Of a stretch of 64,000 bases of DNA, positions 13,220-27,920 are shown one piece after another (the first letter of the stretch is position 1; every line of letters starts with the position of its first letter). This DNA comes from Candidatus Poribacteria bacterium (GTDB lineage: Bacteria > Poribacteria > WGA-4E > WGA-3G). The notes below the pieces were generated by a model, which searched no databases, had not been told where the DNA came from, and saw only the letters and a program-made list of their open reading frames with translations. The translations under genes were made by a program, and so were the position numbers. Location: the NCBI GenBank assembly GCA_965197475.1, contig CBDANF010000002.1, positions 1,120,001 to 1,184,000 on the forward strand, read 5' to 3'.

Positions 13220-14143
13220 ATGGGTCCTGAAACAACAGAACGAATTGATGTTCCAAATATTGTATCCAATAAGGAATGTCAATTTTTTATTGAAAACGGC
13301 TACCTTGTCGTGCCTAACTTGCTATCCGAAAGTGAGGTTGAAGAAATCAGGCAAGACACAACCACGCTTGCTCGCGGCGGCTATGAATGTGATAGCCTTA
13401 AACCGCTTCCAGATAACGTTACCGACGAAGATGCAATCGGCAGAATTCTTTGCATCCATCAACCCCATTTTGTTAGCGATACTATTGAAGAGTACGTCAA
13501 ACACCCAAAAATCTGCGGAATTTTGAGCCAAATTACTGCTGCACACCTGCCATTTTGGGATGGTAGTGTAAAGTGTATGCAATCAATGCTCTTCGTCAAA
13601 CCGCCTAATTTTCAGGGACAGGCGTGGCATCAAGATGAAATCTACATCCCTACGCGCGACCGTTCCTTAATCGGTGCGTGGATTGCTATGGATGATGCCA
13701 CGGTTGAGAACGGATGTTTGTGGGTGCTTCCGGGTTCACATCGGCAAGGTTACCTATATCCGCAACGCAACCACGAAAATCCTGACGAATTTGACTTCGC
13801 TCAAGAAAGTTATGGATTTGACGGTTCTGAGGAAGTACCCGTCGAAGTGACAACGGGTACGCTTGTCTTTTTTAACGGTTATCTGCTGCACCGTTCCCGT
13901 AAAAATCGTGGAGATACATTCCGACGTGTGCTTGTTAGCCACTACTGTAATTCATGGTCTCTACTGCCGTGGTCAATTCGGGAAGGGGAACGTCCTGCAA
14001 GTGCTGATCGGCGATGCATTACTCCGGTATCGGGTGTTGATCCTTATGCTTGGAAAGGTTACGATGATCCGCCTAAAAACGTAGGGTTGCGAACGTGCAA
14101 AGCGATTAGTGAATTACCACCTATCACACAGGAAAGTGAGTGA
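13220..14143 (+). CDS. Phytanoyl-CoA dioxygenase (PhyH) family protein
   Basis: 'WHQD', 'DDATVENGCLWVLPGSH', 'LHRS'. Confidence 0.9.
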   Translation: MGPETTERIDVPNIVSNKECQFFIENGYLVVPNLLSESEVEEIRQDTTTLARGGYECDSLKPLPDNVTDEDAIGRILCIHQPHFVSDTIEEYVKHPKICGILSQITAAHLPFWDGSVKCMQSMLFVKPPNFQGQAWHQDEIYIPTRDRSLIGAWIAMDDATVENGCLWVLPGSHRQGYLYPQRNHENPDEFDFAQESYGFDGSEEVPVEVTTGTLVFFNGYLLHRSRKNRGDTFRRVLVSHYCNSWSLLPWSIREGERPASADRRCITPVSGVDPYAWKGYDDPPKNVGLRTCKAISELPPITQESE

Positions 14144-14352
14144 AACCGATGACGACACAACAAGCTTCTGAGCTACAGAATACATTGGAAACCATGTTAA
14201 ACCGTATCGCTGCGGGAGACGATATTACTGAACAACTTCTTAGGATTGAGCAGTTGTCTACTGACATTGAATCAACTGTGCCCACAATGCTTAAGCACTA
14301 TCTGCAACGGAAAAGTTATACAAAAGCGTTAGATTTTCTTAAAGATATGTAA
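14140..14352 (+). CDS. Small hypothetical protein
   Basis: 70-aa ORF overlapping the upstream stop (GTGA); 'HYLQRKSYTKAL'. Confidence 0.7.
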   Translation: MKPMTTQQASELQNTLETMLNRIAAGDDITEQLLRIEQLSTDIESTVPTMLKHYLQRKSYTKALDFLKDM

Positions 14353-14488
14353 GGATATTGCCCAAATAGGAATTTTCCACTTTCTTGCTTAACTTTATAC
14401 TTTTTGGTATTTTGCTATAATATCCCATACACATTCACAAACTTTGAGGTTATCACCTCATCCATCTAACAAATAAGAAGAAATTCAC

Positions 14489-15637
14489 ATGAAAACTGTC
14501 TTGAAAGAAATCATAACAAGCCGAACTGTTATCGTAACCTTCATTGGCTGCCTGATATTTTTAGGCACACTACAACTATTAGTCGTCAAAGGGTGTAATA
14601 ATGAAGCTGGCAAAAGTATAATAAATGAGCTGCATCCATATATATCGGAAGCAGACCTACATTCAACCGAACCGATAGCAGTTCCGCCTTTTCCTGAACC
14701 CTCACTGGAGGGACTTGTGGCACAACTGAAAGCGGAACTTGGGCTTACCGATGCTGAGATAGCAGAGACTGCGGAACTTATAGCGAAAGAACGCGTACTT
14801 GACATCGTAAACTACATGGACAGTCGCCGTGGTCCCGAAGCGAGGCAGGTTGCGTGGGAACAACGTAAGCGACTCGCTGTTGCGAAACCTGAACTGCTAT
14901 GGACACCCGGCTTCGTCTTACCTCCCACACTTGATGTAATGGAGCTAAGAGATACATCTTTATATAACTACAACACGAAAGAAGGGGACGATTTTACAGT
15001 CACCGAAGAACAAAACCAAAGAATTTATGATCTGCGAGGCCAAGCACAGAGAGGTGAAATTTCTTCGGAAGAATATCGTAGAGAAGGCGGGAAAATTCAG
15101 GTGGAGAACCTTGATCCCCTAACCGCTGCGAAGCATTTTCTAACATATTCAAGCGTAGGTTCCATAAAGGCAGAACTTGGCATTGAATACGCCGAGCGCG
15201 CCATTAATGAAAACCCCAATTCTTTTGAGGCACATCATGTCTGGACATTCTGCAACCGCATGTTCTATTTGGGAACAGACAACGAGAAAGTGATAGCAGG
15301 GTACCGCAATCTGGTTGACAGATTCCCGAATTCCTCCATTGCACTTCAAGATCTGAGTTGGGCACTGTATCATTTGTATTCGGGCCCGGATTTGTATGCC
15401 TACCCAGAGGAGGCACTCGATGCTGTCCAACGCGCAATTCAACTTGATGACCGCATTGAACGAAATAATCAATTATTAGCTCGTAGTTATCATAAACTCG
15501 GGGAATATGAAAAAGCACTTGCTGTTTACCAAGGAATGTCCGAAGTATTCTATGGTCACGCAGGTGGGCTTCTCACACCTATTTATGAGCTTCAACGCAA
15601 AGTTTACAATCAACGGCAGCAACAACAAGGCGAATAA
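14489..15637 (+). CDS. Membrane-anchored TPR protein, paralog 1
   Basis: N-terminal TM helix; TPR-like helices 'YAERAINENP', 'EEALDAVQRAIQLD', 'LGEYEKALAVY'. Confidence 0.85.
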   Translation: MKTVLKEIITSRTVIVTFIGCLIFLGTLQLLVVKGCNNEAGKSIINELHPYISEADLHSTEPIAVPPFPEPSLEGLVAQLKAELGLTDAEIAETAELIAKERVLDIVNYMDSRRGPEARQVAWEQRKRLAVAKPELLWTPGFVLPPTLDVMELRDTSLYNYNTKEGDDFTVTEEQNQRIYDLRGQAQRGEISSEEYRREGGKIQVENLDPLTAAKHFLTYSSVGSIKAELGIEYAERAINENPNSFEAHHVWTFCNRMFYLGTDNEKVIAGYRNLVDRFPNSSIALQDLSWALYHLYSGPDLYAYPEEALDAVQRAIQLDDRIERNNQLLARSYHKLGEYEKALAVYQGMSEVFYGHAGGLLTPIYELQRKVYNQRQQQQGE

Positions 15638-16121
15638 TGTCAAAGAGAAACAGAAACCGTAACAATCAGGAAAGTGTAGTGCTTTGTCAAGTTTATATTT
15701 ATGGGTACAAGCCGCGATTAGAAGATCGCTTCTACAGAACCTGAAAAGTAGGAAGGAACTCCGATTCCCGACTATGTCACGACTCACCATTTGAAAGTGG
15801 ACATAACAGTAGAGGTTTTTAATACTAACCGCCACTGCCACTACAATATCTTTTATATTATTACAAAAAGGAATTTAAACATGCCAAAAACTATAACTTT
15901 ACGCAATAAGTAGTTTTGGACTTGCAAAAAACATGTGAAAAAGTGTGATAAACCCTTGTGTAGACAAGGTTTATATGGTATAATATAGATAAGAAAAAAG
16001 GGAGGTTGTAGCCTCCCAATTAACCCAAAAAGCAGAGTTGCTTTCTGAAGGTTCTAATCTTATCTGATATTATATCAGAAATCCGTCAGAAAAAGCAACT
16101 CCTATTTCAAGGAGTTATCTG

Positions 16122-17003
16122 ATGGATTTAATCAAGGTCATGGAACGTTTCCCCGATCAAGAGAGTTGTATTGCACATTTAGAGAAGATTCGTTGGCGAG
16201 GTAAACCTGTGTGTCCGCATTGTGAAAGCGATCATATAGGAGAACGGACAGAAACAGAAATCGGTCGTATCGGTCGTTGGAACTGCCACGAGTGCCAAGT
16301 GAGTTTCAAGGTGACGTGCAGGTCGGTGTTTCACGGGACAAAGATAGCGTTACAGAAGTGGTTTTTGGCTATTTCGTTGATAACGAATGCGAAGAAAAGT
16401 TTGTCAAGGCATCAACTGGCGCGCGATTTAGACTTGAATCAAAAGACAGCATGGTTTATGATGGCACGTATTCGTGCTGAAATGGCAAAGAAAGGCGGGG
16501 CTTTACTACAAGGTATCATTGAAGCAGATGAGACCTATATTGGCGGTAAACCTCGTAAAAAGAACAAACGTGAAGATGATGAACCACATAAACGTGGCAG
16601 AGGAACGGAGAAAACTGCTATAATAGGAGCAGTGCAACGTGGGGGTAGGGTTGTCGCACAGGTGGCACATAACCTCACAGGACGCACTATCCTTGAGTTT
16701 ATTCGGAGTGCTGTAAACCTAAAGGACTCGGAACTAATAACCGATGAGTATCAGGCTTACAACGCTATTGGAAAGGAAATGAAGCACGCTGTTATCAACC
16801 ACAAGGTGCAGTTTGCTGATGGTGATACACATACAAACACGATTGAAGGGTTCTGGTCACTACTCAAACGGGCTTGGTATGGACAGCATCACCATTATCA
16901 GACAGGATACACACCGCTGTATGTGGCGGAAGCGTGCTATAAGTATAACTATAGGAGCGTTGACAGCTTGTTTGTCAAGTTTGTCAACGAAAGTATGTTG
17001 TGA
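16122..17003 (+). CDS. IS1595-family transposase
   Basis: Zn ribbon CPHC...CHEC, 'EADETYIGG', 'ITDEYQAY', 'HTNTIEGFWSLLKR'. Confidence 0.95.
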   Translation: MDLIKVMERFPDQESCIAHLEKIRWRGKPVCPHCESDHIGERTETEIGRIGRWNCHECQVSFKVTCRSVFHGTKIALQKWFLAISLITNAKKSLSRHQLARDLDLNQKTAWFMMARIRAEMAKKGGALLQGIIEADETYIGGKPRKKNKREDDEPHKRGRGTEKTAIIGAVQRGGRVVAQVAHNLTGRTILEFIRSAVNLKDSELITDEYQAYNAIGKEMKHAVINHKVQFADGDTHTNTIEGFWSLLKRAWYGQHHHYQTGYTPLYVAEACYKYNYRSVDSLFVKFVNESML

Positions 17004-17233
17004 GAGAAGTTAGAGATTCTATGGCAGATGTATTGAGTCAGCACGGACTAGATAAGAAAAGTGATAGTCCTTCAAGATCTGCTCTTTCTGAAACAGAATT
17101 CTTTGAAGAATTTTGTATCGTTGCTGAATATTTCATCGATGCATTTCACAGGTATGTTGAAGAATTCAGGACTGCCGATAATGTTCCTCAGACAAAACAT
17201 TCTGGGAAAACAAGTGAGCTTGACACCGGTTGA
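17000..17233 (+). CDS. Small hypothetical passenger protein
   Basis: 77-aa ORF overlapping the transposase stop (GTGA). Confidence 0.4.
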   Translation: MREVRDSMADVLSQHGLDKKSDSPSRSALSETEFFEEFCIVAEYFIDAFHRYVEEFRTADNVPQTKHSGKTSELDTG

Positions 17234-17438
17234 GTGCGTCCATAAAATTATCAAAAGTGGTTAACATTTCCTCTTTTGATTTGAATTCTAACACCATTTT
17301 TGCGCGTTCTTTGTGATGTATGTAGATGTAGAAACTACTTTTTGCGCTTATGTGGCGTTCTTCAGTTTCAATTCTCTGACACATAGCCAAGTTTAATGCT
17401 TTTCTTTCATTATTTTCGGTATATTCAACGAAAAACAT
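17166..17438 (-). CDS. Hypothetical passenger protein
   Basis: 90-aa ORF preceded by RBS AGGAG. Confidence 0.6.
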   Translation of the reverse strand: MFFVEYTENNERKALNLAMCQRIETEERHISAKSSFYIYIHHKERAKMVLEFKSKEEMLTTFDNFMDALNRCQAHLFSQNVLSEEHYRQS

Positions 17439-17493
17439 GATTTTAATCTCCTTTGGAGTTAGAGGGGACAGGGTCCCCTCGTTGTCAGAGTTG

Positions 17494-17868
17494 TTATAAG
17501 TATTCGGGGATTACTTCTGACACGCTGGTTATTGCTACAGCAATAGATAGTTCACTCTTTAAGCTCCATGTCGAGCATATAAGTGAGACAACAATCATAC
17601 GTAAACCAAAAGGTTCAGATGGTTCACCAAGAGTTGCTGTATGCAAAATGCATTCGGTAAATTCATCGCGCTTTTCATTGGGCACACCAAAGGTGAGAGC
17701 AAACCCTCTAATAATCGTTTCATACAATTGCTTTTTGGGAGTATCAGAAGGGTTTAGATCACGCAAGGTTTCATAATGTGTCAATGCAAGACGAGGGAAT
17801 TCCCTTATAAGCCACTTATCTCTATCTTTGTGTTTCCTGCGTTCTTTCCAATCTGAAAACAAAGACAT
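17494..17868 (-). CDS. Hypothetical passenger protein
   Basis: 124-aa ORF preceded by RBS AAGGAG. Confidence 0.65.
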   Translation of the reverse strand: MSLFSDWKERRKHKDRDKWLIREFPRLALTHYETLRDLNPSDTPKKQLYETIIRGFALTFGVPNEKRDEFTECILHTATLGEPSEPFGLRMIVVSLICSTWSLKSELSIAVAITSVSEVIPEYL

Positions 17869-17989
17869 AATAGTCTCCTTGTGTAAAAGGGAGTGGTTTC
17901 AGCGATGTAATAAGCTAAATGCAAAGCGATTATTATGTCGCTGATTCTATAAATATGATGTTAACTGTTTGGTTCACGAGAACTATACA

Positions 17990-18072
17990 CACGAAACTTT
18001 CCAATGTTACTTGGTTATGGTAGAGACCGCGCCTTGCGACGCGGGTAACATTCTCTACCAAAGTTTTCGTGA
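17990..18072 (-). ncRNA. Candidate pseudoknotted structured RNA
   Basis: Manual fold: three stems, GCAA tetraloop, 6-bp bulge-loop pseudoknot; begins just below a sigma70-like promoter. Confidence 0.55.
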
Positions 18073-18079
18073 TGTTAAT

Positions 18080-18108
18080 AGGATACTATACTGGCAGGAT
18101 TTTGTCAA
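18080..18108 (-). promoter_or_regulatory. Sigma70-like promoter driving the passenger operon
   Basis: TTGACA-17 nt-TATCCT on the minus strand. Confidence 0.6.
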
Positions 18109-18203
18109 GTAAAAAATTTGAGAAAAATTTTCAAGTCCAAAACTACTCATTGCGTAACTTTATGTCTAACACTTGTCACTGAGTAGAAAATGGATATATC
18201 TTA

Positions 18204-18326
18204 CAGGACGGACGCATTCCCCCTTGATAAGGGGGGTTAGGGGGGTTAAATAAGCAGAATTTTGGTATTTTAACCCCCTAAATCCCCCTTATCAGCGGGA
18301 CTTTAAGAGGAAATGCGTCCGTCCTG
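18204..18326. mobile_element. MITE family A, copy 5
   Basis: TIRs present, TSD TCTTA. Confidence 0.9.
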
Positions 18327-18445
18327 TCTTAGTTTTCATAGAAACACGATAAATGCTGGGACAACCGCAGGGTGCTAATTTTTCACGTGATAAAAAAGAG
18401 AAACGTGGTATAATTTACTAAAATCAAAAATGCGGAGGAATTCCC

Positions 18446-19594
18446 ATGAAAACCTTCTTGAAAGAAATCATAATGAGTCGTCCTGTGATTATTACCTTCA
18501 TTGGCTGCCTACTCTTTTTCGGATCGCTTCTACTTTTTGTAATCAAAGGGTGTAATAATGAAGCTGGCAAGAGTATAATAAACGAGATCCATCCATATAT
18601 ATCGGAAGCAGACCTACGTTCGACCGAACCGATAGCAGTTGCGCCTTTTCCTGAACCCTCACTGGAGGGACTTGTGGCACAACTGAAAGCGGAACTTGGG
18701 CTTACCGATGCTGAGATAGCAGAGACTGCGGAACTTATAGCGAAAGAACGCGAACTTGACATCGTAAACTACATGGACAGTCGCCGTGGCGTAGCAGCGA
18801 GGCAGACTGCGTGGGAACAACGTAAGCGACTCGCTGTTGCGAAACCTGAACTTCTATGGACCCCCGGTTTCGTCTTACCGCCCGCACTTGATGTGATGGA
18901 GTTAAGAGATATATCTTTATATAACTACGATACGAAAGCGGGGGACGATTTCACAATTACCTCAGAACAACGGCAAAGAATGTCTAACCTGCGAAGCCAA
19001 GCACAGAGAGGTGAAATTTCTGATGAAGAATATAGTAGAGAAGCTGGGAAAATTGCGGTTGAGAACCTTGATCCCTTAACTGCTGCAAAGCATTTTCTAA
19101 CGCATGCAGGCGTAGGTTCCATAGATGCTGAACTCGGTATTGAATACGCCGAGCGCGCCATTAATGAAAACCCCGATTCCTTTGAGGCACATCATGTCTG
19201 GACATTCTGCAACCGCATGTTCTATTTGGGAACAGACAACGAGAAAGTGATAGCAGGGTACCGCAATCTGGTTGACAGATTCCCGAATTCCTCCATTGCA
19301 CTTCAAGATCTGAGTTGGGCACTGTATCATTTGTATTCGGGCCCGGATTTGTATGCCTACCCAGAGGAGGCACTCGATGCTGTCCAACGCGCAATTCAAC
19401 TTGATGACCGCATTGAACGAAATAATCAATTATTAGCTCGTAGTTATCATAAACTCGGGGAATATGAAAAAGCACTTGCTGTTTACCAAGGAATGTCCGA
19501 AGTATTCTATGGTCGCGCAGGTGGGCTTCTCACACCTATTTATGAGCTTCAACGCAAAGTTTACAATCAACGGCAGCAACAACAAGGCGAATAA
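18446..19594 (+). CDS. Membrane-anchored TPR protein, paralog 2
   Basis: 382 aa, closely similar to paralog 1; RBS GGAGG. Confidence 0.85.
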   Translation: MKTFLKEIIMSRPVIITFIGCLLFFGSLLLFVIKGCNNEAGKSIINEIHPYISEADLRSTEPIAVAPFPEPSLEGLVAQLKAELGLTDAEIAETAELIAKERELDIVNYMDSRRGVAARQTAWEQRKRLAVAKPELLWTPGFVLPPALDVMELRDISLYNYDTKAGDDFTITSEQRQRMSNLRSQAQRGEISDEEYSREAGKIAVENLDPLTAAKHFLTHAGVGSIDAELGIEYAERAINENPDSFEAHHVWTFCNRMFYLGTDNEKVIAGYRNLVDRFPNSSIALQDLSWALYHLYSGPDLYAYPEEALDAVQRAIQLDDRIERNNQLLARSYHKLGEYEKALAVYQGMSEVFYGRAGGLLTPIYELQRKVYNQRQQQQGE

Positions 19595-19899
19595 TGTCAA
19601 AGAGAAACAGAAACCGTAACAATCAGGAAAGTGTAGTGCTTTGTCAAGTTTATATTTATGGGTATAAGCCGCGATTAGAAGATCGCTTCTACAGAACCTG
19701 AAAAGTAGGAGGGAACTCCGATTCCCGACTATGTCACGACTCACCATTTGAAAGTGGACATAACAGTAGAGGTTTTTAATACTAACCGCCACTGCCACTA
19801 CAATATCTTTTATATTATTACAAAAAGGAATTTAAACATGCCAAAAACTATAACTTTATGTCTAACACTTGTCACTGAGTAGAAAATGGATATATCTTA

Positions 19900-20023
19900 C
19901 AGGACGGACGCATTCCCCCTTGATAAGGGGGGTTAGGGGGGTTAAAAGTCCTTATTTTTGGTGTTTTTAACCCCCTAAATCCCCCTTATCAGGGGGACTT
20001 TAAGAGGAAATGCGTCCGTCCTG
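19900..20023. mobile_element. MITE family A, copy 6
   Basis: TIRs present, TSD TCTTA, same flanks as copy 5. Confidence 0.9.
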
Positions 20024-20142
20024 TCTTAGTTTTCATAGAAACACGATAAATGCTGGGACAACCGCAGGGTGCTAATTTTTCACGTGATAAAAAAGAGAAA
20101 CGTGGTATAATTTACTAAAATCAAAAATGCGGAGGAATTCCC

Positions 20143-21291
20143 ATGAAAACTGTCTTGAAAGAAATCATAATGAGCCGTCCTGTTATTATTACCTTCATTG
20201 GCTGCCTACTCTTTTTCGGTTCACTGCTGCTTTTTGTAATCAAAGGGTGTAATAATGAAGCTGGCAAAAGTATAATAAACGAGATCCATCCCTATATATC
20301 GGAAGCAGACCTTAACTCAACTGAACCGATAGCAGTTGCGCCTTTTCCTGAACCCTCACTGGAGGGACTTGTGGCACAACTGAAAGCGGAACTTGGGCTT
20401 ACCGATGCGGAGATAGCAGCGGATGCGGAACTTATAGCGAAAGAACGCGAACTTGACATCGTAAACTACATGGACAGTCGCCGTGGTTCCGAAGCGAGGC
20501 AGGCTGCGTGGGAACAACGTAAGCGACTCGCTGTTGCGAAACCTGAACTGCTATGGACACCCGGCTTCGTCTTACCGCCCGCACTTGATGTAATGGAGTT
20601 AAAAGATATATCTTTATATAACTACGATACGAAACAAGGTGAAGATTTTACAATCACCTCAGAACAACAGCAAAGAATCTATGAACAGCGAGACAAAGCA
20701 AGGAGAGATGAAATTTCTTCGGAAGAATCTCGTAGAGAAGCTGGGAAAATTCGGGTGGAGAACCTTGATCCCTTAACTGCTGCGAAGCATTTTCTAACAT
20801 ATTCAGGCGTAGGTTCCGTAAACGCAGAACTCGGTATTGAATACGCCGAGCGCGCCATTAATGAAAACCCCGATTCCTTTGAGGCACATCATGTCTGGAC
20901 ATTCTGCAACCGCATGTTCTATTTGGGAACAGACAACGAGAAAGTGATAGCAGGGTACCGCAATCTGGTTGACAGATTCCCGAATTCCTCCATTGCACTT
21001 CAAGATCTGAGTTGGGCACTGTATCATTTGTATTCGGGCCCGGATTTGTATGCCTACCCAGAGGAGGCACTCGATGCTGTCCAACGCGCAATTCAACTTG
21101 ATGACCGCATTGAACGAAATAATCAATTATTAGCTCGTTGTTATCATAATCTTGGCGAGTATGAAAAAGCACTTGCTGTTTACCAAGGGATGTCCGAAGT
21201 ATACTATGGTCATGGTGGGGGTCTTCTCACACCTATTTATCAGCTGCAACGCAAAGTTTACAATCAACGGCAGCAACAACAAGGCGAATAA
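20143..21291 (+). CDS. Membrane-anchored TPR protein, paralog 3
   Basis: 382-aa paralog. Confidence 0.85.
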   Translation: MKTVLKEIIMSRPVIITFIGCLLFFGSLLLFVIKGCNNEAGKSIINEIHPYISEADLNSTEPIAVAPFPEPSLEGLVAQLKAELGLTDAEIAADAELIAKERELDIVNYMDSRRGSEARQAAWEQRKRLAVAKPELLWTPGFVLPPALDVMELKDISLYNYDTKQGEDFTITSEQQQRIYEQRDKARRDEISSEESRREAGKIRVENLDPLTAAKHFLTYSGVGSVNAELGIEYAERAINENPDSFEAHHVWTFCNRMFYLGTDNEKVIAGYRNLVDRFPNSSIALQDLSWALYHLYSGPDLYAYPEEALDAVQRAIQLDDRIERNNQLLARCYHNLGEYEKALAVYQGMSEVYYGHGGGLLTPIYQLQRKVYNQRQQQQGE

Positions 21292-21340
21292 TGTCAAAGA
21301 GAAACAGAAACCGTAACAATCAGGGACTGACGCTGCAAAA

Positions 21341-21813
21341 TAGACATTATAACGTTTTCAGGACGGACGCATTTTTTCTTAAAGTCCCACTGATAAGGGG
21401 GATTTAGGGGGTTAAAAACACCAAAATAAGGACTTTTAACCCCCCTAACCCCCCTTATCAAGGGGGAATGCGTAAGTCCTGGTTTTAATTGTGAGTTATT
21501 ATTGGTCTATGGTCCAATCTTATGTTCGTCCGTTGGGTAGATTAGGTGTCGCGCGCAACTTTCTGAATCGCGGATTATCGCGGATTACACCAAATCAACG
21601 GTATGAATGCCTTTTTGGCATTCCCCGGATTTCACGGATTATTGGACACTGGTGACAACAAGTCGTTTTCATAATGTGATGTCAATAACAGAAGCCGTCC
21701 ATCCATCCGTTGAATGTGCGGATACAAGACTCATAAAATCCGCGCAATCCGATAAATCCGCGTAAATCCGCGATTCTGACAACACAACGCCGATTAAATC
21801 ATTATAATGTCTA
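21341..21813. mobile_element. Composite MITE (TAGACATTATAA...TTATAATGTCTA) containing MITE A copy 7 and a GGATT-periodic element
   Basis: Terminal inverted repeat; the same end sequence occurs at ~3092; the whole block is duplicated at ~23145-23617. Confidence 0.6.
21359..21481. mobile_element. MITE family A, copy 7
   Basis: TIRs present, TSD GTTTT. Confidence 0.9.
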
Positions 21814-21970
21814 ATCTTTATGTTACCACAAAAAGGAGTTTAATCATGTCAAAAACTATAATTTTTTGTTTAACTTTCTTACTTATCGGTATTTTGCTAT
21901 AATATCCCATACGCATTCACAAACATTGAAGTTATCACCTCATCTGTACCACAAAAAAGGAGAAATTCAC

Positions 21971-23095
21971 ATGAAAACTGTCTTGAAAGAAATCATAATG
22001 AGTCGTCCTGTTATTATTACCTTCATTGGCTGCCTACTCTTTTTCGGTTCACTGCTGCTTTTTGTAATCAAAGGGTGTAATAATGAAGCTGGCAAGAGTA
22101 TAATAAACGAGATCCATCCCTATATATCGGAAGCAGACCTTAACTCAACCGAACCGATAGCAGTTCCGCCTTTTCCTGAACCCTCACTGGAGGGACTTGT
22201 GGCACAACTGAAAGCGGAACTTGGGCTTACCGATGCGGAGATAGCAGCGGATGCGGAACTTATAGCGAAAGAACGCGAACTTGACATCGTAAACTACATG
22301 GACAGTCGCCGTGGTTCCGAAGCGAGGCAGGCTGCGTGGGAACAACGTAAGCGACTCGCTGTTGCGAAACCTGAACTGCTATGGACACCCGGCTTCGTCT
22401 TACCGCCCGCACTTGATGTAATGGAGTTAAGAGATATATCTTTATATAACTACGATACGAAACAAGGTGAAGATTTTACAATTACCTCAGAACAACGGCA
22501 AAGAATGTCTAACCTGCGAAACCAAGCACAGAGAGGTGAAATTTCTGATGAAGAATATAGTAGAGAAGCTGGGAAAATTCGGGTTGAGAACCTTGATCCC
22601 TTAACTGCTGCGAAGTATTTTCTAACATATTCAAGCGTAGGTTCCATAAAAGCAGAACTCGGTATTGAATACGCCGAGCGCGCCATTAATGAAAACCCCA
22701 ATTCCTTTGAGGCACATCATGTCTGGGCACTCTGCAACCGCGAGTATTATTTTCAAACAGACAATGAGAAAACAATAGAGGGGTTCCGCAATCTGGTTAA
22801 CAGATTTCCGAACTCCTCCATCGCACTTCAAGAACTTTGTTTGATAACCCGTTTCACCCACCCGGAGGAGGCACTTGATGCCGTCCAACGCGCAATTCAA
22901 CTTGATGACCGCATTGAACGAAATAATGAATTATTAGCTCATTGTTATCATAAACTCGGGGAATATGAGAAGGCACTTGCTGTTTACCAAGGAATGTCTG
23001 AAGTATACTATGGACACGGTGGTGGTCTTCTCACCTTTATTTATCAACTTCAACGCAAAGTTTACAATCAGCGGCAGCAACAACAAGGCGAATAA
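21971..23095 (+). CDS. Membrane-anchored TPR protein, paralog 4 (divergent TPR core)
   Basis: Start assigned by homology (MKTVLKEII) with RBS AGGAG; 8-aa deletion relative to the other paralogs. Confidence 0.85.
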   Translation: MKTVLKEIIMSRPVIITFIGCLLFFGSLLLFVIKGCNNEAGKSIINEIHPYISEADLNSTEPIAVPPFPEPSLEGLVAQLKAELGLTDAEIAADAELIAKERELDIVNYMDSRRGSEARQAAWEQRKRLAVAKPELLWTPGFVLPPALDVMELRDISLYNYDTKQGEDFTITSEQRQRMSNLRNQAQRGEISDEEYSREAGKIRVENLDPLTAAKYFLTYSSVGSIKAELGIEYAERAINENPNSFEAHHVWALCNREYYFQTDNEKTIEGFRNLVNRFPNSSIALQELCLITRFTHPEEALDAVQRAIQLDDRIERNNELLAHCYHKLGEYEKALAVYQGMSEVYYGHGGGLLTFIYQLQRKVYNQRQQQQGE

Positions 23096-23162
23096 TGTCA
23101 AAGAGAAACAGAAACCGTAACAATCAGGGACTGACGCTGCAAAATAGACATTATAACGTTTT

Positions 23163-23285
23163 CAGGACGGACGCATTTTTTCTTAAAGTCCCACTGATAA
23201 GGGGGATTTAGGGGGTTAAAAACACCAAAATAAGGACTTTTAACCCCCCTAACCCCCCTTATCAAGGGGGAATGCGTAAGTCCTG
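23163..23285. mobile_element. MITE family A, copy 8
   Basis: Identical to copy 7, TSD GTTTT. Confidence 0.9.
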
Positions 23286-23649
23286 GTTTTAATTGTGAGT
23301 TATTATTGGTCTATGGTCCAATCTTATGTTCGTCCGTTGGGTAGATTAGGTGTCGCGCGCAACTTTCTGAATCGCGGATTATCGCGGATTACACCAAATC
23401 AACGGTATGAATGCCTTTTTGGCATTCCCCGGATTTCACGGATTATTGGACACTGGTGACAACAAGTCGTTTTCATAATGTGATGTCAATAACAGAAGCC
23501 GTCCATCCATCCGTTGAATGTGCGGATACAAGACTCATAAAATCCGCGCAATCCGATAAATCCGCGTAAATCCGCGATTCTGACAACACAACGCCGATTA
23601 AATCATTATAATGTCTAATCTTTATGTTACCACAAAAAGGAGTTTAATC

Positions 23650-26619
23650 ATGTCAAAAACTATAATTTTTTGTTTAACTTTCTTACTTATCGGTGTCTTT
23701 GCCGCAACGGACATCGCACAAGCACAGACGTTGACGATAAGCCCTAAAAATCAAGATACATACAACGACTGGGAACCAACGAATGGGGGCACCCTCACTT
23801 TTACTGTCAACGTTAGCAACTTATCTGCTGCGAATATCACTGGCGGTAAAATCAGTTTTGACTTTGAGACGGTGTCGAGGTGGCATGGGATCTGTATGAA
23901 TGACGGAGAATGTAAAGCCCCAGAAGACCCAGACCTCTACTTTGACAGCACTCAGACGACCTATACTGCGCCACGCTGGCAACAATCGAGCGAATCTTCA
24001 GACAGCAGCACTTCACCAAGAGTAGATGCTGTGTGGAATTCGAGTGATAATCTCAATAACTTTTCAATTGATGTCAAAGTACTATGCAGGGATTACGGTG
24101 CATTCGGTATCCTTCGGGTAAAACTCTATAAAAGCACCTCATCTTCATCCTATGTATTTGTAAAGGAAGTTGGAATCGTCATCCCGAAAGATGACAATGG
24201 CAATTATATGGCAGACAAAAGCGACACAAAATATGGGTATACAAACCCAGCCATTGATGCTGAATCCGGTCCTGATGATGGATCAGGTGTTGAGGAAAAT
24301 AACAACTATGGAGATGGACTCGTCGAATTTGAGGAATACCGTGGGGCTATGATAGACGGGGTGCATAAACGTCTCAAGCCAACGGAGAAAGACATTTTCG
24401 TCTATAGCCAGTTCACCACTTTAGGCATTGGTGATGCATCCAACTTGCCCAGCACGACCTTTAAAGTGCATGAGATACGGATACGTGAAACGAAAGATGA
24501 AGACGATGATCGAACGGTAAACTACAATTCTTTAGGCACCCCAACCCAGTTCGGTGCAGTGGATGCGTGGCGTGTGCAAAATACAAAGGCTCTCTGGATA
24601 ACTCCCACGTCTTCAGGTACCTACTTAGGAATAGTAAGTGCGGTTGCTGCGCCTCCTGATGTAGAATCAGTTAAAATCAATGAAACAAACATTAGAAATT
24701 ACCTTACCAGTATCCAGAACGGTACGCCCCGGACAAACCTAACAGCAAATCAGTTCATTCGTTTTGTTATCGGGCATGAAATGGGACATGGGGTAGCAGT
24801 TAACCATCCTTGGCACACACCCGTCCCTTCCGGTTCTTCTAATCCGCCTGTTGATGGTGGTTGGTATGGTTTTAGTGGTAATCTTTCGCATATACGCACT
24901 CCGAGTATAGTTGCGGCTTTGCTATCACATTTTGATAGTTATTGGAATGTCAATACGGCTCCAGCAAAATGGACGATACCTGTCAACAGCTATACGGATG
25001 ATTTGCCACTGGATAGTTCCGCATCAAGTTTTAAGTATCAGTACGGTTCTACTATTATGGATTATCCAATACCTTTTAGCGACATAACTGACGCGAATAA
25101 TAACACAATAGATAGAGAAGGTATTTTCCCCGCGTCAACTTTTCATAGTCTCCACAATTGGGAATATCAATTGCTGGGTGATGGTGTGGCATCTCAGGAA
25201 ACTGCTGAGTGGACACGTCGCACCGTTTCTGCGGATCCATCCAGCGAGGCAAACTTTGGAGATTCAGCCAATTCGGGTAATGGTGATAGCACTGATGGGA
25301 GTAATGGCGGTAGCACAGAAACTAATGGCGATAGCACAGAAACTAATGGTGATAGCACAGAAACTAATGGCGGTAGCACAGAAACTAATGGTGATAGCAC
25401 AGAAACTAATGGTGATAGCACAGAAACTACTAGTGATGGCACAGAAACTAATGGCGGTGGCACAAGCACTACACCGCCAGGTGCACCGAGAGATTTGCTC
25501 GTCTCATCAGAAGGTGATGGTCAGGTCAGTTTATCATGGACAGCCCCAACCGATACAGGGAGTTCTTCAATTGACAATTATGAATATCAGTATAGCGAAA
25601 GCAGCCCCGAGAGTTGGAGCGGTTGGATATCAACGGGTAACGATGGAAACTCTATAACTGGTACGAGTGTAGATGTTACGGGGTTGACCAACGATACGGA
25701 ATACAAGTTCCAGGTGCGCGCCGTGAGTAGCGCGGGAGAGAGCCCAGAATCAGACACAGTGACCGGAAGCCCCCAAGCACCGGTCATAATAACAGTGCCC
25801 GCAGCCCCTGCTTGGAGTGATATACCGGATCCGTATAACCTTACCGTTGGTGATTATTTTTGTTTAGACTTGAGTAGTTATGTGTCTGGGAGCCCGACTA
25901 TAGCCAGGACTTTGGGTAGGATACCTGCTGGATTATCCCTTAGTAATGGTGTCTTGAGTGGAACGGTGACAACGGTTGAAACTCGGTATCTTAAGTTTAC
26001 GGCGACCAATCTCGGAGGTTCCGTACAAAGTGAGTGGGTTGATATCGTTGTAACTGCCGCCTCTACGCCAACGGTGACAGTGCCTGTTTGGAGCGATATA
26101 CCGGATCCGTACAATCTTATCGTTGGTGATTATTTTAGTTTAGACTTGAATAGTTATGTGTCTGGGAGCCTGACTATAACCAAGAACGCTGGTGCTATAC
26201 CTGCGGGGTTGTCACTGAGTAATGGTGTCCTGAGTGGCACGGTCACAACCGTTGAAAGTCGGGGTCTCCAATTTACTGCGACAAATACCGAAGGGTCCGC
26301 ACAGAGCGAATGGGTCCAAATTGTCGTTACTGCCGCCTCTACGCCAACGGTGACAGCCCCTGTTTGGAGTGATATACCGGATCCGTACACCCTTACTGTT
26401 GGTGATTATTTTAGTTTAGACTTGAATAGTTATGTGACGGGAAGTCTGACTATAACCAAGAACGCTGGTGCTATACCTGCGGGGTTGTCACTGAGTAATG
26501 GCATCCTGAATGGCACGGTGACAACCGTTGAAGATCGCAGTATCCAATTTACTGCGACCAATTCTGCAGGTTCCGCACAAAGTGAATGGGTTAATATCAC
26601 CGTTCAAGCTGCTCAATGA
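23650..26619 (+). CDS. Secreted metzincin-like metalloprotease with S/T/G linker, FN3 domain and three Ig-like repeats
   Basis: Signal peptide MSKTIIFCLTFLL...AQA; HEMGHGVAVNH Zn motif; Met-turn-like STIMDY; FN3 'LSWTAP...GLTNDTEYKFQVRA'; 3x 'WSDIPDPY...PAGLSLSNG.L.GT'. Confidence 0.8.
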   Translation: MSKTIIFCLTFLLIGVFAATDIAQAQTLTISPKNQDTYNDWEPTNGGTLTFTVNVSNLSAANITGGKISFDFETVSRWHGICMNDGECKAPEDPDLYFDSTQTTYTAPRWQQSSESSDSSTSPRVDAVWNSSDNLNNFSIDVKVLCRDYGAFGILRVKLYKSTSSSSYVFVKEVGIVIPKDDNGNYMADKSDTKYGYTNPAIDAESGPDDGSGVEENNNYGDGLVEFEEYRGAMIDGVHKRLKPTEKDIFVYSQFTTLGIGDASNLPSTTFKVHEIRIRETKDEDDDRTVNYNSLGTPTQFGAVDAWRVQNTKALWITPTSSGTYLGIVSAVAAPPDVESVKINETNIRNYLTSIQNGTPRTNLTANQFIRFVIGHEMGHGVAVNHPWHTPVPSGSSNPPVDGGWYGFSGNLSHIRTPSIVAALLSHFDSYWNVNTAPAKWTIPVNSYTDDLPLDSSASSFKYQYGSTIMDYPIPFSDITDANNNTIDREGIFPASTFHSLHNWEYQLLGDGVASQETAEWTRRTVSADPSSEANFGDSANSGNGDSTDGSNGGSTETNGDSTETNGDSTETNGGSTETNGDSTETNGDSTETTSDGTETNGGGTSTTPPGAPRDLLVSSEGDGQVSLSWTAPTDTGSSSIDNYEYQYSESSPESWSGWISTGNDGNSITGTSVDVTGLTNDTEYKFQVRAVSSAGESPESDTVTGSPQAPVIITVPAAPAWSDIPDPYNLTVGDYFCLDLSSYVSGSPTIARTLGRIPAGLSLSNGVLSGTVTTVETRYLKFTATNLGGSVQSEWVDIVVTAASTPTVTVPVWSDIPDPYNLIVGDYFSLDLNSYVSGSLTITKNAGAIPAGLSLSNGVLSGTVTTVESRGLQFTATNTEGSAQSEWVQIVVTAASTPTVTAPVWSDIPDPYTLTVGDYFSLDLNSYVTGSLTITKNAGAIPAGLSLSNGILNGTVTTVEDRSIQFTATNSAGSAQSEWVNITVQAAQ
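25279..25464 (+). repeat. 21-bp coding VNTR (NGDSTET), about 8 units
   Basis: AATGG(T/C)G(A/G)TAGCACAGAAACT in tandem. Confidence 0.9.
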
Positions 26620-27055: not shown

Positions 27056-27161
27056 CTGTGCTACAGTTCTACTAATAAAGTAGTACCAACTTTTTATAGA
27101 CATTGCTTTTGAGCATAAACTTCTGTTGAGTCACAGATTAAAACTTGAAAATGAGGATTAC

Positions 27162-27920
27162 ATGATCAGAGAAGATGGACGAAAAACAGATGAGATGCGT
27201 CCTGTTACCATTAGCCGGAATTATATAAAGCATGCTGAGGGAGCTATTCTTATAGCAACTGGGGATACGAAGGTGATTTGCACCGCATCTGTTGAAGAAC
27301 GCCAGCCGAGATTTATGCGGGACCAGAACATCCGACATAAAGGTTGGGTCACTGCCGAGTATTCAATGCTACCGCGTTCCACTTCTCAACGCATGCAACG
27401 CGAAGCATCGCAAGGCAGGCTTGGCGGGCGAACACAGGAAATTCAACGCCTAATCGGCAGATCACTCCGCGCTGCTGTTGACCTTGATTCATTAGGTGAA
27501 AGAACAATCTGGTTGGACTGCGATGTGATTCAAGCCGATGGTGGCACCCGTACCGCAGCAATTACAGGTGCATTTATGGCACTCTGGGATGCCTGCAAAA
27601 GTCTGCAAAACCAAGGCAAGATTGATGAACTGCCTATCTCTGACAATATCGCTGCAACCAGTGTTGGGATTATCAATGGAATCCCTATGCTTGATCTCTG
27701 CTATACTGAGGACTCGGCTGCCGATGTTGATATGAACATTGTGATGACAGGAAATGGAAAGTTCATTGAGATTCAAGGCACCGCTGAACAAGACCCATTT
27801 TCACGTGAAGATTGTGACCAATTGTTTGACCTATCTGTCAGCGGTATTCAACAACTCATCCGCTTACAGAACCGAATGATGCTTGAGAACCTTGATGAAG
27901 CTAGTTTTGGCAACCCGTAA
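27162..27920 (+). CDS. rph: Ribonuclease PH
   Basis: '[14 protein letters not shown]', '[16 protein letters not shown]', '[16 protein letters not shown]'. Confidence 0.97.

Follow-up and report, generated by a model that had tools for sequence, protein, structure and literature searches.

A tandem array of TPR-like paralogues within a TPR + metzincin-like protease cassette of Poribacteria

We analysed a 64,000-nucleotide stretch of a Candidatus Poribacteria genome (assembly GCA_965197475.1, contig CBDANF010000002.1, positions 1,120,001 to 1,184,000; hereafter the window), and within it an array of tetratricopeptide repeat (TPR)-like genes that ends in a gene for a secreted, metzincin-like protein. 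The genome is metagenome-derived, comes from a sponge-symbiont bacterium and comprises 5.7 Mb in 3 contigs at 92.7% completeness; the window corresponds to C2:1120001-1184000, and coordinates with no contig prefix are those of the window. Between a PhyH-family dioxygenase gene on the left (13220-14143) and rph on the right (27126-27920) lie four TPR paralogues on one strand and then a single larger gene encoding a 989-aa putative protease. The array is, almost beyond doubt, a young tandem amplification within one member of a Poribacteria-wide TPR + protease cassette, marked by duplications, mosaic copies and a late insertion sequence (IS).

Architecture of the array

In agreement with an initial annotation of this DNA, the four TPR genes are intact and lie upstream of one metzincin-like gene, all on the forward strand: T1 (14489..15637, 382 aa), T2 (18446..19594, 382 aa), T3 (20143..21291, 382 aa) and T4 (21971..23095, 374 aa, with an 8-aa deletion). 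T1 is made up of an N-terminal hydrophobic anchor, a family-specific region and a C-terminal TPR-like superhelix. T4 adjoins the gene for the secreted multidomain protein (23650..26619), which is the single intact copy at the locus. The mechanical open reading frame (ORF) of T4 begins with TTG at 21866, and homology together with the ribosome-binding site (RBS) places the start at ATG 21971. T1, T2 and T4 share 88-91% protein identity with T3, and a repeat search lists the copies as four-copy families D1-D6; T4 is the most divergent copy in its C-terminal half.

Each of T1-T3 is trailed by a 14-18-codon copy of the RBS and signal-peptide start of the protease gene, and these stubs, which the initial annotation had noted, can be read directly. 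Stub 1 opens, with its RBS, as MPKTITL (15881..15901), is split by an IS1595-family element and resumes beyond it as CLTLVTE followed by a stop codon (18163..18186). Stub 2 reads MPKTITLCLTLVTE and then a stop (19838..19882). Stub 3 reads MSKTIIFCLTFLLIGILL and then a stop (21846..21902); its first 45 nt equal positions 23650-23694 of the intact protease gene with no difference, and from 21891 on it is fused to a TPR upstream region (type A, below). A 58-nt segment holding the RBS and the protease start (repeat family D10) was found four times, at 15852, 19809, 21817 and 23621, with 90, 100, 84 and 84% identity to its reference copy, respectively. The proposal that one and the same start follows every TPR copy thus holds for the repeat but not for its exact sequence, as over the 58 nt the first two stubs share just 84% identity with the start of the present protease gene. 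There are two stub types, and this low identity argues that stubs 1 and 2 stem from another copy or allele of the protease gene that has since been lost.

The flanks of the TPR genes also fall into types. Upstream region type A of T1 (14381..14488, forward strand) contains a promoter-like site with an extended -10 (14394-14421) and a homeologous patch (14381-14408) that resembles codons 6-15 of the protease gene. Type B, upstream of T2 (18328..18445, forward strand), has a promoter-like site at 18387-18414 and is identical at 118/118 positions to the region upstream of T3 (20025-20142). T1, T2 and T3 are thus each preceded by a promoter-like site with a TG-extended -10, identified by consensus matches only. 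On the downstream side, region type X follows T1 and T2 (241/243 identical), and intergenic region type Y, which runs from 21292 to 21845 after T3 on the forward strand, is identical at 554/554 positions to that after T4 (23096-23649).

Origin of the array

Aligning the four units shows that the homology common to all of them extends from the TPR RBS to 36 nt past the stop codon. Outside this core, T1 and T4 share upstream type A, T2 and T3 type B, and the units are joined in two ways. Junction 1, which consists of stub X, a palindromic repeat resembling a miniature inverted-repeat transposable element (MITE) and upstream region B, is seen twice with a period of 1697 nt. Junction 2, in which stub Y is fused to upstream region A with the switch at a shared GGT, is seen once. 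The two upstream types, two downstream types and two junctions argue that at least three recent tandem duplications or unequal crossovers were needed. Each amplification took the TPR gene and extended no more than 12-15 codons into the protease gene.

The microhomology proposed at the fusion of stub 3 to the TPR upstream region is real: positions 14381-14408 and 23666-23694 are identical in 23 of 29 columns, with the GGT at the end of the patch. Of 2000 shuffles, 28 reached the score of this patch, as did 16 of 3000 windows drawn at random from the genome. It is best described as a short homeologous stretch that exceeds chance, although not strongly.

The copies are mosaics of one another. Segment-wise dS between one pair of copies spans 0 to 0.79: T3 and T4 are almost the same over residues 1-150 (dS 0.025-0.04), T2 is nearest to T4 over residues 151-230, T1, T2 and T3 are nearly alike over residues 231-290 (T2 and T3 show zero differences) and T4 is divergent there, and T1 and T2 are separated by a single non-synonymous change over residues 291-382. 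This pattern is the mark of recombination or gene conversion among the array copies. Whole-gene dN/dS values of 0.29-0.43 indicate that the copies are under purifying selection. Residues 151-230 form the most variable segment and the only one with dN/dS near or above 1, reaching 1.73 for T3 versus T4 on the basis of few sites. The TPR gene was therefore retained in intact copies, as had been proposed, but what had been called diversification is mosaicism under purifying selection, with no clear positive selection.

The element that splits stub 1 is, as previously assigned, a member of the IS1595 family (15902..18154, 2253 bp, forward strand). Its transposase (16122-17003, forward strand) matches the Pfam models DDE_Tnp_IS1595 (E = 2.5e-37) and Zn_ribbon_IS1595 (E = 9.5e-10), its terminal inverted repeats agree at 22/23 positions, and it is flanked by 8-bp direct repeats, TAACTTTA, at 15894-15901 and 18155-18162; the IS1595 family makes target duplications of 8 bp. 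A 1.1-kb passenger module holds two reverse-strand ORFs of 90 aa (17166-17438) and 124 aa (17494-17868), which had no Pfam, NCBIfam or PADLOC match. Among the best 25 of 77 hits, at least three further full-length copies in the genome are 99.96-100% identical, which argues that the element was recently active, and its insertion into stub 1 is a later event. Many other IS copies in the genome match the transposase half only (~1100 nt, 68-96% identity) and differ in their right halves.

The MITE-like repeat, ~125-130 bp long, lies at 18197-18327 and 19893-20024 on the forward strand and at 21359-21481 and 23163-23285 on the reverse strand. Its termini are CAGGACGGACGCAT...ATGCGTCCGTCCTG, with G/C-rich arms 'CCCCCTTATCAAGGGGG', and it gives 134 genome blastn hits, a count that includes both strands of palindromic copies and partial hits. 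Further copies lie at C2 coordinates 1122744, 1124908 and 1127954, and in contigs from RNA libraries its summed word depth is very high, at ~490-530 for the bin 19642-20075. At the left edge of the array, a 70-aa ORF (14140-14352) overlaps the PhyH stop by 4 nt, and its own stop abuts upstream region A of T1; a family search with this ORF gave chance-level matches only.

In a metagenome-derived genome such an array could in principle be an assembly artefact in which strain variants of one TPR gene have been strung together. The Logan contigs that cover the locus are short, none of those listed spans the array, and contig joints within the MITE had sides of just 19-32 nt, which makes them uninformative. 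However, the four units have four different flank combinations (A/X, B/X, B/Y and A'/Y), only one of them carries the IS, the copies differ by 9-12% in protein sequence, the genome is assembled into 3 contigs, and similar arrays occur at two other loci and in other genomes. We consider an artefact extremely improbable. The tandem array in itself is ordinary gene amplification and is well documented here.

Conservation of the TPR + protease pair

We used hidden Markov models built from the genome's own ORFs, and took as a protease-family gene one that combines the N-domain with the catalytic region. The genome has 15 such genes (13 intact, 2 split) and five short ORFs with the N-domain only. 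Under a strict criterion, a TPR-family ORF lies directly upstream on the same strand of 11 of the 15 protease-family genes, at gaps of -130 to +516 nt, and a looser TPR criterion raises this to 14 of 15; for the short N-domain-only ORFs the corresponding counts are four and all five. The number expected by chance is ~0.1, estimated from 41 strict TPR-family ORFs among ~5000 genes.

The TPR and protease trees mirror each other. Across 13 cassettes, which are 60-80% divergent, the p-distances of the TPR proteins and of the proteases are correlated with a Mantel r of 0.92, a value reached in none of 5000 permutations, and the nearest neighbours of the two partners concur in 11 of the 13. Together these observations argue that the pair has been duplicated as a unit many times, and the suggestion of the initial annotation that TPR + protease is the ancestral unit is borne out by the adjacency, by the correlation and by two further arrays. 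The latter, at C2:333-349 kb and C3:204-212 kb, are TPR arrays with truncated 5' pieces of the protease gene (148-210 aa), and arrays of this kind were also seen in other genomes.

Beyond this genome, the protease family was detected (E <= 1e-10) in 24 of 80 other Poribacteria genomes. Among the 28 best protease loci of these genomes, a TPR-family ORF lies directly upstream in 19 and directly downstream in four; the remaining five have no TPR-family ORF within 1.5 kb. The co-occurrence that the initial annotation had put forward as a check is thus seen across the phylum, with exceptions that include two genomes, described below, that carry TPR orthologues but in which the family protease was not found. 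In full-text literature searches, the text available contained no account of metzincin-like proteins of Poribacteria having a TPR partner. What appears to be new is a phylum-specific TPR + protease cassette that is present in 15 copies in the genome studied here.

No third gene is common to all cassettes, WD40 and GspC-like neighbours being limited to subsets. One clade of cassettes has one to three genes for WD40 beta-propeller proteins (400-717 aa) downstream of the protease gene, at C2:592007-597778, C2:642538-647473, C3:993380-997797, C3:2803286-2805905 and C3:3706021-3711722; three scanned genes at the first of these loci match WD40 with E values of 2e-46 to 6e-119, and the remaining loci were grouped by blastp. 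In another clade, an ORF of 150-190 aa adjoins five cassettes; in four it comes directly after the protease gene, and in the fifth it precedes the TPR gene (C2:361559-362026, C3:2373422-2373874, C3:3665792-3666301, C3:3089658-3090233 and C2:1210609-1211061). Two of the three such ORFs scanned gave sub-threshold matches to T2SSC/GspC (E = 1.1e-5 and 3.1e-5, with scores of 24-26 bits where the cut-off is 27), which hints at a link to type II secretion.

Predicted fold and topology of the TPR-like protein

By sequence, the TPR proteins are at the edge of detection. Pfam matched them with 6-10 TPR-clan models at a single repeat (residues ~306-350), all below cut-off, the best being TPR_2 in T4 with 25.9 bits against a cut-off of 27, and NCBIfam returned generic TPR matches that were likewise sub-threshold. 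An AlphaFold model of T3 has a predicted local distance difference test (pLDDT) score of 86.7 and consists of an N-terminal helix (residues 2-33), the family-specific region (44-160) and helical repeats (~164-380). According to the model, the repeats form a right-handed superhelix of paired antiparallel helices, and fold searches with it return TPR proteins only. The top Foldseek matches are consensus TPR proteins (E = 3.5e-4), and VIA gave Z scores of 9.4-10.3 to Pins, CTPR, MamA and PilF over residues ~164/208-378, scores of a size that is common for helical repeats. The other VIA matches (Z 8-10 overall) include PilF/PilW, BamD and YfgM; the last of these (8zht_B; Z 8.6, rmsd 3.5, 145 residues aligned) is an inner-membrane-anchored periplasmic chaperone partner.

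Inspection by eye of 13 cassette-linked TPR paralogues showed that most begin with a single hydrophobic helix preceded by Lys or Arg. None of the 13 has a lipobox at the end of the anchor, and the sole pattern hit falls inside the helix of the window's copy. From these features we infer that the TPR protein is an N-in, C-out signal-anchor protein, with a cytoplasmic N terminus, one membrane helix and a TPR-like domain that would reside in the periplasm.

Several paralogues of the TPR family have a His/Trp-rich motif after the anchor, PPPGE..GYWHGDHWH or GHWHG[DN]EWH, as at C3:2368060, C3:2369790, C3:3670518, C2:609579, C3:989650 and C3:2799849. The motif also occurs in a separate array of proteins of ~250-310 aa (C3:1754732-1768203) and is absent from the window's own TPR subfamily. 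It could be a metal-binding site.

Features of the metzincin-like protein

The 989-aa protein begins with a Sec-type signal peptide, MSKTIIFCLTFLLIGVFAATDIAQA, which ends in AQA. This is followed by an immunoglobulin (Ig)-like beta-sandwich (residues ~25-181; VIA Z 8-10 to generic Ig-like, pilin and adhesin domains) and then by an acidic linker rich in Asp and Asn. A zinc site, HEMGHGVAVNH, lies at residues 376-386 and differs from the metzincin motif HExxHxxGxxH/D in that Ala replaces Gly. An alignment of 20 orthologues and paralogues (A2) shows no variation at H376, E377 and H386 and almost none at H380. Among 14 paralogues (A3), the residues without variation are H376, E377 and H380, with H386 nearly constant, and HExxH is present in 13 of 13 listed paralogues. 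The candidate Met-turn, S-T-I-M-D-Y at 467-472, which we take to resemble the Tyr-containing Met-turn of astacins and serralysins, has a nearly invariant M470 and invariant D471 and Y472 in A2 but no conserved column among the divergent paralogues of A3.

Comparison with characterized families gave weak matches. The 14-paralogue profile matched solved metzincins, namely a snake-venom metalloproteinase (E = 0.002), serralysins (0.0033-0.0047) and an archaemetzincin (0.0099), all weakly and only in the surroundings of the zinc site. The Pfam models Reprolysin_4/5 and M54 were sub-threshold, the Atlas gave Reprolysin_3 clusters at only 0.83, and the match that NCBIfam gave, to a family of myxobacterial surface proteins, was weak and sub-threshold. 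A single-sequence search of PDB sequences returned nothing relevant, and a search of PDB with the orthologue profile A2 was dominated by fn3 matches. A structure model of residues 1-560 has an overall pLDDT of 50, with the catalytic part below 50, so that fold searches were usable for the N-domain only. We regard the label 'metzincin-like' as reasonable but not proven.

Above cut-off, the only Pfam matches in the 989-aa protein are the adhesion-type domains fn3 and He_PIG, its C-terminal part comprising a single fn3 domain along with three He_PIG-type repeats of 92 aa. The fn3 domain is joined to the catalytic part by a GDSTETN/GGSTETN linker encoded by a 21-nt tandem repeat of about ten units (25260-25490), the length of which could differ between strains. 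In A3, 6 of the 14 protease paralogues lack the fn3/He_PIG ending and instead carry terminal dockerin type I domains, for which the best E value is 5.7e-18, together with EF-hand-like matches. The protease family thus swaps its C-terminal anchoring modules.

A possible partnership between the two proteins

A complex prediction for TPR and protease, one of the checks proposed in the initial annotation, was run on T4 residues 37-374 and protease residues 27-560 with separate alignments and three controls. The pair scored 0.58 (runs at 0.58, 0.65 and 0.51), compared with 0.00 for the best control. Of 157 solved complexes, 116 pass the mark used, as do 2 of 215 mismatched pairs; scores of 0.60 or less include only 18 of the 157 solved complexes and both of the mismatches that passed. 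At least 55% of contacts agree between runs, and the pLDDT of the partners is at least 81. The prediction thus lends weak support to binding between the TPR protein and the protease.

We consider a physical partnership of some kind moderately probable. In the mechanism that we favour, the membrane-anchored TPR protein would bind its cognate protease after Sec translocation and retain it at the inner membrane, where it would most likely keep the protease inactive or folding-competent until export, as an inhibitory holdase. Additional TPR genes that are intact and individually equipped with a promoter-like site may raise the dose or widen the specificity of this protective partner. The holdase or inhibitor form of the partnership is more tentative and falls somewhat short of an even chance, and we hold the explanation as a whole, with that role included, just as tentatively. 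Logan contigs from two sponge metatranscriptome runs cover parts of T2 (18469-18752), the end of T3 (21173-21360), T4 (22379-22754, with 10 differences) and the protease gene (24728-24915 and 25766-25954); most of their cover falls on the IS and MITE, DNA carry-over is possible, and stretches that lack RNA cover are uninformative.

Several observations weigh against this mechanism. The support for binding is in silico and weak, the prediction returned no interface, and co-duplication by itself would produce mirror trees, with no need for interaction. Because the catalytic domain is poorly modelled (pLDDT 50), protease activity rests on motifs and weak profile matches. Five genomes of the same genus (G020, G021, G022, G002 and G004) gave no match to the protease N-domain or catalytic region when all candidates were scored, and the paralogue profile matched only the dockerin-like tail in them. 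Two of these, G020 and G021, carry full-length TPR orthologues (49-55% identity), yet no family protease was found there, and a partner strictly dedicated to the protease should not be expected to persist in such genomes. In G020 there are two TPR copies, separated and flanked by transposase-like ORFs, as read from translations. The nearest non-array TPR paralogue (C3:1045171, 46% identical) precedes genes for DAHP synthase and LeuA, with no protease. The protease family is rare in Acidobacteriota (8 of 251 genomes), where a TPR neighbour was seen at 2 of 10 loci, both weak and downstream; this lack of a conserved TPR neighbour argues that the pairing is a trait of the Poribacteria. Finally, inhibitor, foldase and anchor roles are not separable by the present data.

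The same observations could reflect no physical partnership at all. The two genes would then be co-transcribed or co-inherited neighbours, the TPR protein serving, for example, as a general scaffold of the envelope or as an adaptor that has other clients, and the array would be a neutral by-product of DNA that is rich in repeats, IS elements and MITEs. The occurrence of TPR orthologues without proteases, the dense repeats and IS elements at the locus, the weakness of the binding prediction and the fact that mirror trees need only co-duplication are all compatible with this explanation. It accounts less readily for an adjacency that is kept across the phylum even with the order reversed (19 upstream and 4 downstream of 28) and across 13 cassettes that are 60-80% divergent, or for purifying selection on the copies, and we consider it unlikely.

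If the two proteins do interact, the TPR protein could alternatively be a private foldase or secretion adaptor comparable to Lif, that is, a steric chaperone or targeting factor for type II secretion. The architecture matches that of Lif, which has an N-terminal anchor and an all-helical periplasmic domain and whose gene adjoins that of an exported hydrolase. The 150-190-aa ORFs that adjoin five other cassettes, two of them with sub-threshold GspC matches, and the one secretin gene in the genome point in the same direction, as does the complex prediction, weakly. However, orphan TPR copies that have no protease gene to themselves stay intact under purifying selection, TPR orthologues persist in genomes in which the family protease was not found, the window's own cassette has no GspC-like gene and, although this is inconclusive, no Lif structure is among the listed fold matches. 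We consider a Lif-like role doubtful.

A further explanation is an immunity-like repertoire of inhibitors, in which the TPR proteins would inhibit the metzincin-like proteases of their own cell and of neighbouring Poribacteria strains, the orphan copies widening the protection. At three array loci the TPR genes are intact and the protease copies truncated, orphan TPR orthologues occur in genomes without the protease family, and residues 151-230 form the most variable segment, as noted above. There is also a precedent in Tannerella, where, according to the available text on the potempins and KLIKK peptidases, an inhibitor gene lies upstream of each peptidase gene (PMC9890683). Conversely, whole-gene dN/dS is low, recombination mosaicism accounts for most of the variation, and an inner-membrane anchor would protect the periplasm but leave the cell surface exposed to proteases from outside. 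To our knowledge, moreover, TPR domains are not a known protease-inhibitor fold. We regard such a repertoire as an improbable account of the array.

The initial annotation had gone further, likening the locus to T6SS (type VI secretion system) Tle/Tli or polymorphic-toxin loci. In a classical effector/immunity locus, whether the polymorphic toxin system is contact-dependent or of the T6SS type, one would likewise see tandem paralogues beside one secreted enzyme together with truncated remnants of the enzyme gene. Several observations do not support this analogy. TssC/VipB (PF05943) had no match in the genome, which is 92.7% complete, and the E. coli control was positive; the protease has a Sec signal peptide and no trafficking domain in Pfam; the partner gene lies upstream of the enzyme gene; the remnants are 5' signal-peptide pieces and not toxin C termini; and PADLOC gave no hits for the TPR protein or the protease. 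We consider such a system very improbable here.

Discussion

Known systems offer partial parallels to the cassette. Lif is an inner-membrane-anchored, all-helical foldase encoded beside its lipase, and AprA/AprI and Inh are examples of a serralysin-type protease with a periplasmic inhibitor, AprI guarding the periplasm against a metzincin. As in these systems, the Poribacteria cassette would provide an exported hydrolase with a private periplasmic partner encoded beside it. Unlike Lif and AprI, to which the TPR protein has no sequence match and no listed fold match, the cassette is present in 15 copies, and its TPR-only arrays have no counterpart in those systems. Orphan modules of contact-dependent inhibition (CDI), Rhs and T6SS loci consist of toxin C-terminal tips followed by immunity genes. 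The array resembles them in having tandem, putatively protective paralogues beside truncated pieces of an enzyme gene, but here these pieces, which come after the TPR gene, are 5' signal-peptide starts, and TssC/VipB was not found.

TPR proteins are also known as adaptors of proteases, as in the NlpI-Prc complex of E. coli. A second TPR adaptor/protease complex is LbcA-CtpA of Pseudomonas aeruginosa (PMC8764530, PMC6050968). The cassette shares with both the feature of an envelope-anchored TPR protein as the dedicated partner, here predicted, of an extracytoplasmic protease. CtpA and Prc are C-terminal-processing proteases of family S41 that stay periplasmic and are activated by their TPR partner, whereas the Poribacteria enzyme is metzincin-like, exported and multidomain, and its gene is adjacent to that of its partner and co-duplicated with it many times.

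A further organizational parallel is with the potempins of Tannerella forsythia, outer-membrane lipoproteins of 98-132 residues that are described in the available text as shown inhibitors, each encoded by an ORF immediately upstream of a KLIKK peptidase (PMC9890683). In both cases paralogous secreted multidomain peptidases are preceded directly by the gene for a membrane-anchored extracytoplasmic partner. Compared with the potempins as that source portrays them, the partner in the sponge symbiont is larger (374-382 aa), TPR-like and anchored by an N-terminal membrane helix, and its inhibitory role is only proposed. Because the partner differs from potempins in size, anchor and fold, and the enzyme from CtpA and Prc in class, the cassette belongs to none of the potempin, LbcA-CtpA/NlpI-Prc, lipase-foldase and serralysin-inhibitor systems.

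The array itself is a clear example of how a gene family grows, through unequal recombination, clipped gene starts and the traffic of MITEs and IS elements. More broadly, one large TPR family is tied to a secreted metzincin-like family, by 15 cassettes in one genome and by adjacency across the phylum, and this linkage gives a directly testable hypothesis, namely that the TPR proteins bind, inhibit or fold a defined partner. Repeat proteins, those with TPRs among them, are abundant in sponge symbionts, and their roles have mostly been guessed. At its broadest, and here we consider the proposal quite unlikely, the cassette could be a phylum-specific guard system in which inner-membrane TPR proteins inhibit secreted metzincin-like proteases that act on matrix or surface, with orphan arrays as an immunity-like repertoire against the proteases of co-resident sponge strains. 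Such a system would imply secreted-protease-based competition and protection without an injection apparatus, and would give a concrete function to the long-noted 'eukaryote-like' TPR proteins of sponge symbionts. If the TPR proteins are specific guards or foldases of proteases, they would represent a new structural type of protease partner and may help to explain how Poribacteria keep in check the enzymes that they direct against the host matrix or against bacteria nearby.

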